The notes: generated from the letters alone by a model not told the origin. A DNA stretch of 58,364 nucleotides from Microseira sp. BLCC-F43 (GCF_041929235.1 NZ_JBHFNP010000225.1:1-58364); one strand, 5' to 3'; shown: positions 5,229-18,304, counted from the stretch's first letter. Translations and numbers: made by a program.

Positions 5229-6419
5229 TCAATTGCGGTTAGAAGCTTCATGTTGCTGCCGCTGGCGTTTCGCAAAAGAACCAGCACCCACAGCACCCAA
5301 CGCCAAGAATGCCAGTGCAGAAGAGGGTTCGGGAACAGATTTGGAAGTATTGGGTGTTAAGAGGAAGGCTCGCTGTTGACCATTGTAAAAGCCGCGACCC
5401 ACAATCTGTCCCGCATTGTTGATGTCTACTACACTGTTTAGTGTCCAGCCAGGAGCGGAAACCAAGTCGTTGAGGTCGCTGATGCCACTGCTCTTTTCCC
5501 AGAAGAAGGGACGATTTTGCCCAGAAGTGATGTATGAGTAACCAATTACCTGGCCTAAGTTATTGATGTCAATGGGATTGATTCCGTTATCCCCTAGAGT
5601 ACCCAAGTCAGTCATGCCGCTGCTCTTTTCCCACAAGAAGGCGTGATTTTGCCCATTAGCGATGTTGGATTGACCAACCACTTGACCTAAGTTGTTAATG
5701 GCATAAGCAGCGCTAAAGTTACCCCCCAGAGTACCCAGGTTAGTCATGCCGCCGCTCTTTTCCCACAAGAAGGCGCGATCGCCATCAGTGGTGGATGAGT
5801 AACCAACCACCTGACCATAGTCGTTGATGGCTGTGCCATAAGTATAGCTATAGCCATAATAACTCCCCAGTGTACCTAGGTTAATCATGTCGCTGCCCTT
5901 TTCCCACACGAAGGCGCGATTTTGCCCATAACCAGAAAAGTAGGTGTATGTGTTACCAAGCATCTGACCTAAATTGTTGATGGCTGTGGCAAAGGCATAG
6001 CCATAGATACTTCTCGGTGGACCCAGCTCAATCATGCCGCTGCTCTTGTCCCAGAAGAAGGGATTTTCCCCATAGTTGTTCGCTCTATTACCAACGACTT
6101 GACCTAAGTCGTTGATCGCTGTGGCATAAGTATAGCCAGACCAGTTGCCATAGCCATAGATACTTCTCGGTGGATCCAGGTTAATCATGCCGCTGCTTTT
6201 GTCCCACAAGAAGGCGCGATTTCCCCCACCAGCGGTGTTTGAGCTACCAACCACCTGACCATACTCGTTTATGGCATAGGCAGAACTAGAGTCACCCCCC
6301 AGCGTACCCAGGTCTGTGATAGAAAAACTGATAGCATCGGCTCTTTGGGCGCTGGTGATTCCCAAGAATGCAGCGGCAGTTAGTGCCATACCAACTTTGC
6401 AAGCATTGAGTATTTTCAT
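5229..6419 (-). CDS. HAF-repeat extracellular protein with a PEP-CTERM sorting signal (paralog 1 of 4).
   Basis: Signal peptide MKILNACKVGMALTAAAFLG..AQRADA. About 40-aa repeats NxxGQVVG...(R/H)AFLWEKSSGMxDLGTLGG, including HAFLW. The C-terminal VPEPSSALAFLALGAVGAG..KRQRQQ is a PEP-CTERM motif followed by a TM helix and a basic tail. Confidence 0.8.
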   Translation of the reverse strand: MKILNACKVGMALTAAAFLGITSAQRADAISFSITDLGTLGGDSSSAYAINEYGQVVGSSNTAGGGNRAFLWDKSSGMINLDPPRSIYGYGNWSGYTYATAINDLGQVVGNRANNYGENPFFWDKSSGMIELGPPRSIYGYAFATAINNLGQMLGNTYTYFSGYGQNRAFVWEKGSDMINLGTLGSYYGYSYTYGTAINDYGQVVGYSSTTDGDRAFLWEKSGGMTNLGTLGGNFSAAYAINNLGQVVGQSNIANGQNHAFLWEKSSGMTDLGTLGDNGINPIDINNLGQVIGYSYITSGQNRPFFWEKSSGISDLNDLVSAPGWTLNSVVDINNAGQIVGRGFYNGQQRAFLLTPNTSKSVPEPSSALAFLALGAVGAGSFAKRQRQQHEASNRN

Positions 6420-6740
6420 AATTTCTCCTTTCCAAATTGATTGCTACAAAAAGAACAAAGCGCACAGTGAAAAGACTCGCTCTCGTGCCCACAGGTGCGA
6501 ATGGGATTCGCCTCAGCGAGTAGGTGCTATTTCTGTTGCTGAAAACTCACATCTTTTTCTTGATTTTTCACAAATTCGGGAGAATCGCAAATCAACCGGG
6601 TTTCTCCGAAAAATCGTTGGTTTGGAACTAGAGATCTACGCAGAAACTTTGGTGATAGGAACGCCGGTTTCTCCGAAAAACTAGAGAGCGCAGCCAGAAA
6701 CTTTGGTGATAGGTGAGGTGAATCGAAAACAGGCATCAGT
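6420..6740 (-). promoter_or_regulatory. Conserved 5' leader and promoter region of HAF/PEP-CTERM gene 1. The distal part contains CACCAAAGTTTC-TIR repeat copies.
   Basis: About 200 nt directly upstream of the ATG is near-identical to 14398..14597, 15747..15950, 16368..16568 and 17718..17900. The RBS is GGAAAGGAGAAATT-ATG. Confidence 0.45.
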
Positions 6741-7240
6741 TTGCCATGACTGTTTTCTAAATGCTGAAACAGGGCTTTTTAGAACTATTCTTTCAGCCTC
6801 ATGCACTGGGAGCGATCAATTAATTCACTTGATTTAAATATTTTCATGGAAACATAACCTTCAATTCCAGCTAATTTATCAAGGTGTTTCAGTAAATCTA
6901 CCATTTTGGTGCCAACTAGATTTGACTTTCACCATATCTTCACCGTGTTTTCACGGCATCTTCAAAAATCAAATAAGTATTTTTACGTGAATTGCAGGCG
7001 AGGTGTTTGGGATGTGCGAACGCGAGTGCGGAAGGCAGGCATATCGCCCCCCCCAGAAACCCGGTTTTTCTAACCATACCTTCGCCAAAGCCGACACCCT
7101 TAAGGGTGCGGCGTGACAAACTTTGGCTGCTTTGGCAGCCAAAGTTTGTTTCAGCCTGCTCTGGCAGGCTTTGTTTGTGTAGCCCCTGGTTTTAACCTGG
7201 GGGATCTTGGCGTTTCAGAACATTGGCTCAGGTATTATCT

Positions 7241-7310
7241 AAAAAACCGGGTTTCTTGAACCCCAGAAACCCGGTTTTTCTAAAAAACCGGGTTTCTTGA
7301 ACTTGGATTG
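7241..7310. repeat. Tandem palindromic repeat AAAAACCGGGTTTCT / AGAAACCCGGTTTTT (two overlapping perfect hairpins).
   Basis: Perfect inverted repeats. The same motif recurs at 7064..7080, 12386..12400, 18305..18338, 21394..21462, 22720..22736, 24944..24978 and 46977..46992. Confidence 0.6.
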
Positions 7311-7349
7311 TAAAAAATCAAGAATTCCTCCAAAACAAGCAAACTAAAT

Positions 7350-16324: not shown

Positions 16325-16367
16325 CTGTTAGCGCCATACCGACTTTGCAAGCATTGAGTATTTTCAT
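16325..16367 (-). pseudogene. 5' remnant of a fifth HAF/PEP-CTERM gene (codes MKILNACKVGMALT.. only). Its own leader copy is retained.
   Basis: The reverse complement of 16325..16367 encodes the conserved signal-peptide start. The gene body is missing. The leader copy lies at 16368..16568. Confidence 0.5.
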
Positions 16368-16568
16368 AATTTCTCCTTACCAAATCGATCGCTACAAAAA
16401 GAACAATGCGCACAGTGAAAAGACTCACTCTCGTGCCCACAGGTGAGCATCGGATTCGCCGAGAGCGAGTCTGTGCTATTTCTGTTGCCGAAAACTCACA
16501 TCTTTTGCTTGATTTTTCACAAATTCGCGACAATCGCCAACAAACCGGGTTTATCCGAAAACTATCGG

Positions 16569-17717
16569 TCAATTGCGACTAGAAGCCTCGTGTTGCAGCC
16601 GCTGGCGCTTCGCCGCACCAGCACCCACAGCACCCAATGCCAAGAATGCCAGCGCAGAAGAGGGTTCGGGAACAGATTTGGAAGTATTGGGCGTTAAGAG
16701 GAAGGCACGGTATTGACCATTGTAAAGGCCATAGCCCGCAATCTGCCCCGCATTGTTGATTCCTACTACATTGTCTAGTATCCAGTCAGGAGCCCAAACC
16801 AAGTCGTTGAGGTCACTGATGCCGCTGCTCTTTTCCCACAAGAAGGGGCGCATTCGCCCATCAGCGGTGGCTGAGTAACCAAGCACCTGACCATAGTTGT
16901 TGATGGCTATGGCAAAGCTAAAGTCACCCCCCAGAGTACCCAGGTCACTCATACCGCTGCTCTTTTCCCAGAAGAAGCTGCGATATGGACTAGCAGCGGT
17001 GAATAACCAACCAATCACCTGACCATAGTCGTTGATGGCTCTGGCAAAACTAAAGTCACCCCCCAGAGTACCCAGGTCACTCATACCGCTGCTCTTTTCC
17101 CACAAGAAGGCGCGATATGGCCCATTTGCGTCGTATAAGCTACCAACCACCTGACCATAGTTGTTAATGGCTCTGGCATAGCTAGATTTACCCCCCAGAG
17201 TACCCAGGTTAACCATGCCGCTGCTCTTTTCCCACAAGAAGGGGCGACCTTGCCCATCAGCGGTGTTTGATTGACCAACTACCTGACCTAAGTTGTTGAT
17301 GGCATTGGCAGAACTATAGTCACCCCCCAGAGTACCCAGGTCACTCATGCCGCTGCTCTTGTCCCAGAAGAAGGCACGACTTTGCCCATCAGCGGTGCTT
17401 GAATTACCAATCACCTGACCATAGTCGTTGATGGCAGAGGCACCGCTATTGTTACCCCCCAGAGTACCCAGGTCACTCATGCCGCTGCTCTTTTCCCACA
17501 AGAAGGCGCGACCTTGCCCATCAGCGGTGTTTGAGCTACCAACCACCTGACCATACTCGTTGATGTCTGTGGCATAGCTCTGGTTATAGTCACCCCCCAG
17601 CGTACCGATGTCGGTGAGAGAAAAAGTAATAGCATCCGCAGGTTGGGAGGTAGCTAGTCCCAAGAACGCAGCGGCAGTTAGTGCCATACCGACTTTGCAA
17701 GCATTGAGTATTTTCAT
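16569..17717 (-). CDS. HAF-repeat PEP-CTERM protein (paralog 4).
   Basis: Signal peptide MKILNACKVGMALTAAAFLGLATSQPADA, HAF repeats, and C-terminal VPEPSSALAFLALGAVGAGAAKRQRLQHE. Confidence 0.8.
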   Translation of the reverse strand: MKILNACKVGMALTAAAFLGLATSQPADAITFSLTDIGTLGGDYNQSYATDINEYGQVVGSSNTADGQGRAFLWEKSSGMSDLGTLGGNNSGASAINDYGQVIGNSSTADGQSRAFFWDKSSGMSDLGTLGGDYSSANAINNLGQVVGQSNTADGQGRPFLWEKSSGMVNLGTLGGKSSYARAINNYGQVVGSLYDANGPYRAFLWEKSSGMSDLGTLGGDFSFARAINDYGQVIGWLFTAASPYRSFFWEKSSGMSDLGTLGGDFSFAIAINNYGQVLGYSATADGRMRPFLWEKSSGISDLNDLVWAPDWILDNVVGINNAGQIAGYGLYNGQYRAFLLTPNTSKSVPEPSSALAFLALGAVGAGAAKRQRLQHEASSRN

Positions 17718-18304
17718 AATTTCTCCTTACCAAATTGATTGCTACAAAAAAAACAAAGCGCACAGTGAAAAGACTCGCTCTCGTGCGCACAGGTACTCAT
17801 CGGATTCGCCTCAGCGAGTCTGTGCTATTTCTGTTGCCGAAAACTCACATCTTTTGCTTGATTTTTCACAAATTCGGGAGAATCGCAAATCAACCGGGTT
17901 TCTCCGAAAAATCGTTGGTTTGGAACTAGAGATATGCACACCCCTAGCACTCGCGTTCGCAGCTTGAAACCCGGTTTCTATGTGAGGTGAATCGAAAACA
18001 GGCATCACTTTGTCATGACTGTTTTCTAAATGCTGAAAGAGGGCTTTTTAGAACTATTCTTTCAGCTTCATGCACTGGGATCGATCAATATAGTCACTAG
18101 ATTTAACTATTTTCATCGAAACATAACCTTCAATTCCAGCTAATTTATCAAGGTGTTTCAGTAAACTTACCATTTTGGTGCAAACTTGATTTTACTTTTA
18201 CCAGAACTTCACAGGCTCTTCACGGCATCTTCAAAAATCAAATAAATATTTTTACGGAAACTGCTTGCAGGAAACCTGTTTGGGACGCGCGTTCGCCCCC
18301 CCCC

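Follow-up and report, generated by a model that had tools for sequence, protein, structure and literature searches.

The PEP-CTERM/exosortase system (TIGR02595; XrtA/EpsH, with CrtA, CrtB and CrtC as cyanobacterial types) is associated with proteins that share a signal peptide and, at the C-terminus, a PEP motif, a hydrophobic helix and a basic cluster. PEP-CTERM proteins form lineage-specific paralogous expansions, with several paralogs per genome, and are tied to EpsH-family exosortases (Haft et al. 2006, PMC1569441). In Nostoc punctiforme, motility and biofilm formation depend on the exosortase CrtB, which also influences how abundant PEP-CTERM exoproteins are; one propeller-type substrate, Npun_DR029, was found in the wild type, whereas it went undetected in the crtB mutant (PMC12188702). 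The HAF family (TIGR02913, which overlaps PF11949) encompasses proteins that share a repeat of around 40 amino acids. Here, we describe four genes, HAF1 to HAF4, in which the HAF repeat and the PEP-CTERM tag are combined. They are found within a 58,364-nucleotide stretch of DNA from Microseira sp. BLCC-F43 (GCF_041929235.1, NZ_JBHFNP010000225.1:1-58364), which as a whole is referred to below as the window.

The Microseira proteins resemble these described systems in different respects. Like the HAF proteins, the CrtB-dependent Npun_DR029 and Npun_R1271 of N. punctiforme are cyanobacterial proteins of the repeat-propeller type with a signal peptide and a PEP-CTERM tail; however, their repeats belong to a different family, NHL-like by inspection of the printed sequences, and they are not reported as a tandem array (PMC12188702). 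Several paralogs per genome are usual in the PEP-CTERM system, and four are present in this window alone, but, unlike in the typical setting, they stand beside pigment and cofactor genes rather than polysaccharide genes. The upstream motifs described by Haft are proteobacterial only (PMC1569441), whereas the HAF genes have a different conserved leader of 215 nt. Within the HAF family the same repeat is matched seven or eight times per protein here, and most relatives end in C-termini other than the PEP tail of the window proteins. At the level of the fold, the best matches are the fucose lectins PLL/PHL of Photorhabdus and the fungal AFL/FleA. The PLL/PHL lectins are propellers that bacteria secrete, each interface between their blades carrying one binding site, and their likeness to the HAF propellers is one of fold only, a functional lead and not a sign of membership. 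Recently amplified propellers with near-identical blades, such as WRAP of N. punctiforme, are also reported to be known from the work of Lupas and colleagues. The likeness to such propellers is that the HAF blades are 80-93% identical in DNA and that blade number changes by whole repeats; in contrast, the change in the HAF proteins is found between adjacent paralogs (seven versus eight blades) and, apparently, between otherwise identical alleles.

Overall, we consider it probable, with good confidence, that the four genes encode secreted HAF-repeat beta-propellers bearing a PEP-CTERM sorting tag, in a locus that was built by segmental and tandem duplication and varied by the gain or loss of 132-bp repeats and by block replacement. 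The protein family and its tag are already known and annotated, the genes forming a lineage-specific paralogous array, and since both are textbook-level annotation there is nothing unusual in the gene content as such. Two features alone go beyond routine annotation: the difference in blade number, which is seen between paralogs and apparently between alleles, and a ratio of nonsynonymous to synonymous substitution rates (dN/dS) of at least 1 that is confined to the repeats.

The four genes all lie on the minus strand, and a listing of open reading frames (ORFs) reproduces exactly the coordinates given in the original prediction for this DNA: HAF1 at 5229-6419 (396 aa), HAF2 at 13123-14397 (424 aa), HAF3 at 14598-15746 (382 aa) and HAF4 at 16569-17717 (382 aa). 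The architecture proposed there, of a signal peptide, HAF repeats and a PEP-CTERM signal, is borne out by the curated hidden Markov models that it named. Against TIGR02913, a repeat model of about 39 residues with a curated cutoff of 22.65 bits, HAF1 to HAF4 score 229.1, 317.3, 299.9 and 270.4 bits (E-values 2e-69 to 6e-97, far from what chance would give) over 7, 8, 7 and 7 matched stretches, respectively. Tandem Repeats Finder likewise detects arrays with a period of 132 in all four genes (2.6, 7.0, 6.0 and 5.8 copies; 76-87% matches). All four also exceed the cutoff of 16 bits of the PEP-CTERM model TIGR02595, at 20.5, 20.2, 20.3 and 18.0 bits, and are borderline for Pfam PF07589, where scores of 20.4, 21.2, 19.9 and 21.3 compare with a threshold of 20.7, so that two pass and two fall just below. 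PF11949 (DUF3466) is matched at 49.5-65.2 bits against a gathering score of 25.1, but the match spans only about positions 378-524 of the 609 in the profile; as it is confined to the repeat portion, the four proteins share the repeat and not the full-length DUF3466 architecture.

Along each protein the order of elements is the same. A signal peptide, recognized by inspection from MK, a hydrophobic core and an A-D-A|I site in all four, appears in the models described below as a low-confidence helix at the N-terminus. It had been called identical among the copies, which is true of the first 20 residues (MKILNACKVGMALTAAAFLG) and not of those beyond. It is followed by an N-terminal half-repeat (FSLTDLGTLGG), five or six units of 44 aa, one unit of 47-48 aa, a C-terminal half-repeat (INNAGQIVG..RAFLLTP), a short linker and the PEP-CTERM tail, VPEPSSALAFLALGAVGAG..KRQRQQ, with its VPEPSS motif, hydrophobic stretch and basic KRQRQQ. 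The repeats had been put at about 6-9 units of some 43 aa; their number does vary, but the unit is 44 aa long and there are seven or eight INxxGQ units in each protein, eight in HAF2 and seven in the others. In HAF1 the 44-aa units are degenerate, three of its seven being 45-52 aa long. The framework residues N, GQ, G, F/W and LG are near-invariant over 30 homologs.

The wider family is huge: 7960 of 8000 scored candidates have E-values of 1e-10 or below, and they come from many phyla, many of them being called 'HAF family extracellular repeat protein'. A PEP tail is found in just 18 of the 120 top relatives, most of the others having different C-terminal ends. HAF1 has already been named, by NCBI as 'PEP-CTERM sorting domain-containing protein [Microseira sp. 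BLCC-F43]' and by the Joint Genome Institute (JGI) as 'probable HAF family extracellular repeat protein'. A homology search returned a second database record that represents a further paralog of Microseira sp. BLCC-F43, beyond the four in the window, and exact look-ups found neither the sequence of HAF3 nor that of the further paralog on record.

The predicted fold is that of a beta-propeller in both proteins that were modeled. AlphaFold2, run for HAF3 with a 30-sequence alignment, gave a model with a predicted local distance difference test score (pLDDT) of 87.5 and a predicted template modeling score (pTM) of 0.81, in which seven four-stranded blades are formed, the N-terminal strand (32-36) completes the last blade and would so close the ring, and a C-terminal helix spans residues 353-379. 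The HAF2 model (pLDDT 89.1, pTM 0.83) has eight blades. Seven blades are inferred for HAF1 and HAF4 from their repeat counts, and the two half-repeats at the ends of the repeat region are predicted to close the propeller into a ring. Foldseek against the PDB matched only propellers, with the Photorhabdus PLL/PHL fucose lectins best (E 1e-7 to 1e-8). A sequence search of the PDB matched no chain, and no HAF member with a solved structure was detectable by sequence. A plausible, fold-based guess is that the propeller binds a ligand, possibly in the manner of a lectin. It may do so as a multivalent module, with sheath or extracellular polysaccharide, or another surface ligand, as the most plausible target.

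The genes had been described as a tandem array of four, which does not apply to HAF1: only HAF2, HAF3 and HAF4 are adjacent, HAF1 being 6.7 kb apart from them, with two unrelated genes between, and the most divergent of the four copies. The locus appears to have grown by segmental duplication that took in more than the gene itself: the copied unit is the gene with a 550-bp upstream region and, at two places, also the 5' end of the neighboring oxidoreductase gene. Self-BLAST aligns 14357-16297 with 16327-18268 at 87.7% identity over 1947 bp. This repeated unit of about 1.95 kb takes in the first 41 nt of the next gene, the 215-nt proximal leader, the gene and the 550-bp upstream region. Long upstream regions, each combining a leader with one copy of a dispersed palindromic element and with an uninterrupted ORF of 39 codons, are found on the minus strand before HAF1 (6420-7018), HAF3 (15747-16297) and HAF4 (17718-18268), the last lying between HAF4 and the divergent oxidoreductase gene and marking the end of the duplicated unit. 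Those of HAF3 and HAF4 are 90.9% identical, and the copy formed by HAF1 and its upstream region (5221-7018) has diverged further, with 79-81% identity to the others. HAF2 has only the proximal region, and its leader abuts, and slightly overlaps, the 3' end of HAF3. A single tandem duplication, in which 14357-16297 was copied to 16327-18268, would have given rise to the HAF3/HAF4 pair and would have left the 5' 41 nt of HAF2 behind as a junction scar.

This scar corresponds to what the original prediction had taken for a decayed fifth copy, reduced to its start-codon region and leader. Such an element does exist, at 16327-16583 on the minus strand, with a leader, a ribosome-binding site, an ATG at 16367 and 13 homologous codons, but it lies at the tandem-duplication junction and is best read as the scar of that junction, not as a decayed gene. 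Its ORF is 16 codons long (16317-16367), the 13 homologous codons being followed by GT-stop and reading MKILNACKVGMALTGT-stop. The stub shares 88-90% identity with the corresponding stretch of HAF1, HAF3 and HAF4. In an alignment of the five upstream regions it pairs with the HAF3/HAF2 junction inside the 87.7% unit match, and on its 3' side some 10-30 nt of filler lead into the start of a distal upstream region. Because it sits exactly where the two ends of the 1.95-kb duplication meet, it need never have been a whole gene. That it was once complete and lost its body by deletion seems improbable. The stub does keep its leader, ribosome-binding site and start codon intact, and a two-gene unit of HAF3 and HAF2 could have been duplicated with subsequent deletion of the second gene, but this route takes two events, the second with an end-point that has to coincide precisely with where the distal upstream region of the next unit begins, whereas one tandem duplication with breakpoints near 14357 and 16297 yields the observed order and junction directly. 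Moreover, only a short leader precedes the stub, as is the case with HAF2, which fits a copied HAF3/HAF2 junction. The stub is also found in two of the related assemblies considered below (L003 and L004) and is missing from Microseira wollei NIES-4236 (L005). As a separate observation, L003 (3342-3401) and L004 (3210-3269) carry a tandem duplication of about 27 bp beside the stub, relative to window positions 16295-16327.

Variation at the locus was followed in comparison loci that are metagenome or draft contigs, several of them ending inside the array, M. wollei NIES-4236 being an isolate genome. Two contigs from JGI metagenomes (L001 and L002) are 99.7-99.9% identical to the window across 13.7-13.9 kb and end within HAF2. 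L003 and L004 are further assemblies of the same population, and their flanks match the window exactly in blocks of 1-2 kb. Against this background, the HAF4 gene of L003 differs from that of the window by no mismatches and by one insertion of 132 bp, equal to one extra repeat, giving an eight-unit allele of 426 aa, whereas HAF4 in L004 (382 aa) is identical to the window form. In the HAF3 gene of L003 the 5' part of the repeat region, about 740 bp, has been replaced and the gene has gained one repeat (424 aa). The best donor for the replaced block in the window or M. wollei reaches only 85-86% identity. The variant N-terminus is shared by L004, in which HAF3 breaks off after 224 codons. Beside the same oxidoreductase gene, M. 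wollei NIES-4236 (GCA_020521235.1) has genes of 442, 425 and 424 aa and a fourth that is cut by the contig end, with spacers that differ from those of the window, so that the repeat numbers found there are not those of the window. The repeat units lack strict positional orthology, several being best paired within their own gene (for example, repeats 3 and 4 of HAF2, at 93%). The recombination-driven diversification that had been suggested for the family is supported directly, in that the flanks are base-identical, yet one assembly holds both a 132-bp repeat indel in HAF4 and a block replacement in HAF3; the differing repeat numbers of M. wollei also speak for it. Gain or loss of a single 132-bp repeat, along with block replacement, would now be altering blade number and loop sequence between closely related populations.

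These differences could instead be artefacts of short-read assembly, with collapsed or misjoined 132-bp repeats in genes that are otherwise real. The extra unit consists of 43 bp with their own substitutions flanked by an 89-bp exact duplicate, and a unit that lies between two such exact copies is one that assemblers can skip; together with the nature of the comparison loci, this favors the artefact. However, the 43 bp with their own substitutions could not be produced from the seven-unit sequence, the seven-unit HAF4 has been assembled identically in two samples (the window and L004), the isolate genome of M. wollei has yet other repeat numbers at the syntenic locus, and blade number differs between HAF2 and HAF3 inside one contig. 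An assembly artefact is therefore judged unlikely.

The regions of the genes evolve at different rates. Among the six gene pairs, identity is 93-95% in the 200 nt upstream, 83-90% in the N-terminus, 78-87% in the repeats and 86-89% in the C-terminal part. Values of dN/dS were calculated by the Nei-Gojobori method, with 95% bootstrap confidence intervals, on ungapped blocks and on the ortholog pair; the whole-gene comparison of HAF3 with HAF4 was discarded as invalid, as an indel shifts the register after repeat 5. The oxidoreductase gene, compared with its M. wollei ortholog as a control for purifying selection, has a dN/dS of 0.12 (0.07-0.19) at a dS of 0.18. For HAF2 and the 424-aa ortholog of M. 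wollei the ratio is 0.26 in the N-terminus and 1.44 (0.85-2.78) in the repeats, and for repeats 1-5 of HAF3 and HAF4 it is 2.04 (1.21-3.84). All 136 pairings of full repeat units together give a dN of 0.198 and a dS of 0.131. Within the 44-aa unit the variable positions are concentrated at 9-19 and 37-43, their post hoc choice inflating the ratio at these positions; mapped onto the model, they take in the last part of strand two, the loop after it and the beginning of strand three, as well as the strand that leads on to the next blade.

A ratio of at least 1 might also reflect relaxed constraint on redundant copies that are drifting to pseudogenes, rather than diversifying selection. Four paralogs are indeed present, the repeats of HAF1 are degenerate and contain insertions, and the confidence interval of the ortholog comparison includes 1. 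Yet none of the four reading frames is disrupted, nor is any of seven additional complete ones in L003 and M. wollei, the framework residues are near-invariant in the 30 homologs, the variation is concentrated at the two stretches of the repeat named above, both models fold with a pLDDT above 87, and the N-terminus of the HAF proteins keeps a ratio of 0.2-0.5. Relaxed constraint is thus a doubtful explanation, and the pattern suggests that these PEP-CTERM surface proteins evolve quickly at their loops while framework and leader stay fixed.

By analogy with the described PEP-CTERM systems, Sec export would remove the N-terminal signal peptide, the C-terminal helix would hold the protein in the inner membrane, a cyanobacterial exosortase of the CrtA/B/C type would cut at or near VPEPSS, and the propeller would finally be located at the cell surface or within the polysaccharide sheath. 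The enzyme itself was sought in several ways. An NCBIfam scan of the 28 further long ORFs of the 58-kb window revealed no exosortase. Wider searches employed a CrtB query from Nostoc sp. LEGE 12450, obtained by way of the crtB primers in Table S1 of PMC12188702 (TIGR04156, 503 bits), and a profile of non-Nostocales CrtB, in protein searches, a metagenome scan and a cluster look-up, in which the best 80-120 matches were listed. Among these listed matches no exosortase could be assigned to Microseira. The CrtB protein search listed only Nostocales; the metagenome scan found at least 80 loci, none of those listed coming from the JGI samples that hold the HAF array and none having a DNA link to the window; and the non-Nostocales profile recovered Coleofasciculus, Microcoleaceae, Dapis, Okeania and others, with no Microseira among the matches listed. 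The clusters given by the look-up carried no organism names. A literature search found no paper on Microseira and exosortases.

It could accordingly be argued that the proteins are not exosortase substrates at all and that the propeller stays in the periplasm, with the C-terminal helix serving only as its tether to the inner membrane, and besides these searches the marginal PEP-CTERM scores and the presence of crtB orthologs in only about half of the cyanobacteria surveyed (PMC12188702) lend this some weight. On the other hand, the full tripartite motif (VPEPSS, hydrophobic stretch and KRQR) is kept in every copy and in relatives from other genera, the phylogenetic profiles of PEP-CTERM and EpsH match closely (Haft 2006, PMC1569441), and CrtB is widespread in filamentous non-heterocystous cyanobacteria. 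A mere tether is, on balance, quite improbable, and sorting by an exosortase is preferred.

A more ambitious interpretation is that the array is a surface-variation locus, in which gain or loss of a single repeat switches the propeller between seven and eight blades in otherwise identical alleles, block replacement and positive selection on one set of loops diversify binding specificity, and the leader is a shared, undescribed control element; we regard this as possible but speculative. Several of the results weigh against the main account given here. Besides the exosortase, which was found neither in the window nor, for Microseira, among the matches listed, the PEP-CTERM margin is just 2-4.5 bits over the NCBIfam cutoff, with two of the four proteins slightly under that of Pfam. 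The repeat-number differences rest on metagenome assemblies, and the 89-bp exact internal duplicate in the eight-unit allele means that the seven-unit form could be an assembly collapse. At about 0.09, the dS of the HAF genes is half the control value, so gene conversion could depress dS and inflate dN/dS; the confidence interval excludes 1 for the HAF3/HAF4 comparison only, and the repeat-unit pairs are not independent. Finally, the resemblance to lectins is generic propeller similarity, with template modeling scores of 0.44-0.53 and identities of 11-19%.

The 215-nt leader precedes the ATG of each HAF gene and of the stub, and is near-invariant in all five window copies (6420-6632, 14398-14612, 15747-15959, 16368-16583 and 17718-17930, all minus), at 93-95% identity. 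Its conservation exceeds that of synonymous sites at the gene ends (dS 0.16-0.32); it is largely kept ahead of the M. wollei genes, and has a core that is recognizable in a more distant relative (L006). About 75 nt before the ATG it contains an 8-12-bp GC-rich inverted repeat followed by TTTT. The leader has no match to an Rfam family, the matches at E of 1 or below over 5000-18500 being three sub-threshold chance hits elsewhere; the copies are so alike that its RNAalifold consensus shows hardly any covariation; and its single-sequence fold, with a z-score of -0.61, is not unusually stable. A structured RNA is on these grounds unsupported as an explanation. A scan for promoters and terminators gave counts equal to those in shuffled sequence. 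The leader could be a promoter/operator, an attenuator, or a tract that is kept uniform by gene conversion.

Further upstream, other elements recur. The 39-codon ORF (MVDLLKHLDKLAGIEGYVSMKI...RSQCMRLKE) is intact in the three long upstream regions (6785-6904, 16083-16202 and 18054-18173, minus), with around nine amino-acid differences between copies, and is called by gene callers in the JGI assemblies; its assignment as a Roadblock/LC7 fragment was rejected, as there is no Pfam match even at E of 10 or below. The dispersed element, of about 110 nt, opens with the perfect palindrome GAAACCCGGTTTTTTCAAAAAACCGGGTTTC. One copy of it forms the middle of each long HAF upstream region (15915-16006 for HAF3 and 17885-17977 for HAF4), and another is found at 24940-25060 on the plus strand. 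Related GAAACCGGGTTTC palindromes are found further upstream of HAF3 and HAF4.

The oxidoreductase gene beside HAF4 (18390-19859, plus) encodes a full-length carotenoid-isomerase-like FAD (flavin adenine dinucleotide) oxidoreductase. Its TIGR02730 score, 334.9 bits, lies below the equivalog cutoff of 586.9, so the assignment holds at family level only. This gene is the source of two truncated duplicates of its 5' end, both on the plus strand. Fragment A (7261-7575) covers the promoter region and the first 226 nt or so of the gene, is 90.2% identical to 18301-18615, and contains an ORF (7350-7562) that reproduces the N-terminus of the full oxidoreductase. Fragment B (12470-12714) has the same orientation as fragment A, as a direct repeat of it, and shares 93.4% identity with 7365-7575 and 93.1% with 18405-18649. 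The two fragments form direct repeats of 211-245 bp that bracket a 4.9-kb block (7576-12469), outside the HAF family and standing between HAF1 and HAF2-4, with a major-vault-protein homolog (7908-10532, plus; Pfam matches to Vault, Vault_2/3/4 and MVP_shoulder) and a gene of the type I phosphodiesterase family (10790-12169, minus). Bacterial and cyanobacterial homologs of the major vault protein have already been described (bioRxiv 10.1101/872010). The colinear site of M. wollei NIES-4236 has the HAF2-type gene, a single fragment and then the gene at the HAF1 position; as the block is absent there, it is an indel, for which recombination between the direct repeats, in either direction, would be the simplest cause. 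Just past fragment B, a 110-bp sequence (12714-12824) recurs in inverted orientation at 32642-32749 with 80% identity, where it adjoins the 3' end of a GGDEF/EAL gene (32756-35698).

The rest of the window is ordinary cyanobacterial chromosome, with a BchH/ChlH-like chelatase, CobN, the oxidoreductase, a Dam methylase and sensor kinases, as well as GlmM, a terpene synthase and copies of TnpB. Two large chelatase subunits are paired 23 kb apart: a BchH/ChlH-type gene directly after HAF1 (1404-5111, minus; TIGR02025, 1587 bits) and its paralog CobN (28566-32570, plus; TIGR02257, 1644 bits). The adjacent histidine-kinase genes at 35949-39371 and 39481-41151 (minus) are 69% identical over about 870 nt (35987-36857 versus 39601-40455), a shared stretch that is another local duplication. 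At the right end of the contig, four TnpB genes (51892-52599, 55193-56338, 56772-57485 and 57525-58037), one full-length (381 aa) and three truncated, look like a decaying group of the IS200/IS605 type.

For gene stubs in arrays, the lesson is that duplication junctions can be mistaken for decayed genes. The natural difference in blade number between adjacent paralogs, and apparently also between alleles, is relevant to the evolution of repeat proteins, and the fast evolution of surface proteins is of interest in Microseira, a bloom- and mat-forming, toxin-producing genus. If the repeat-number polymorphism is true, the locus would serve well for telling strains apart and would be a candidate determinant of sheath adhesion. 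If the array does act as a surface-variation locus, it would bear on specificity for sheath polysaccharide, neighboring cells, phages or grazers, and would offer a natural and ongoing example of beta-propeller blade-number evolution.

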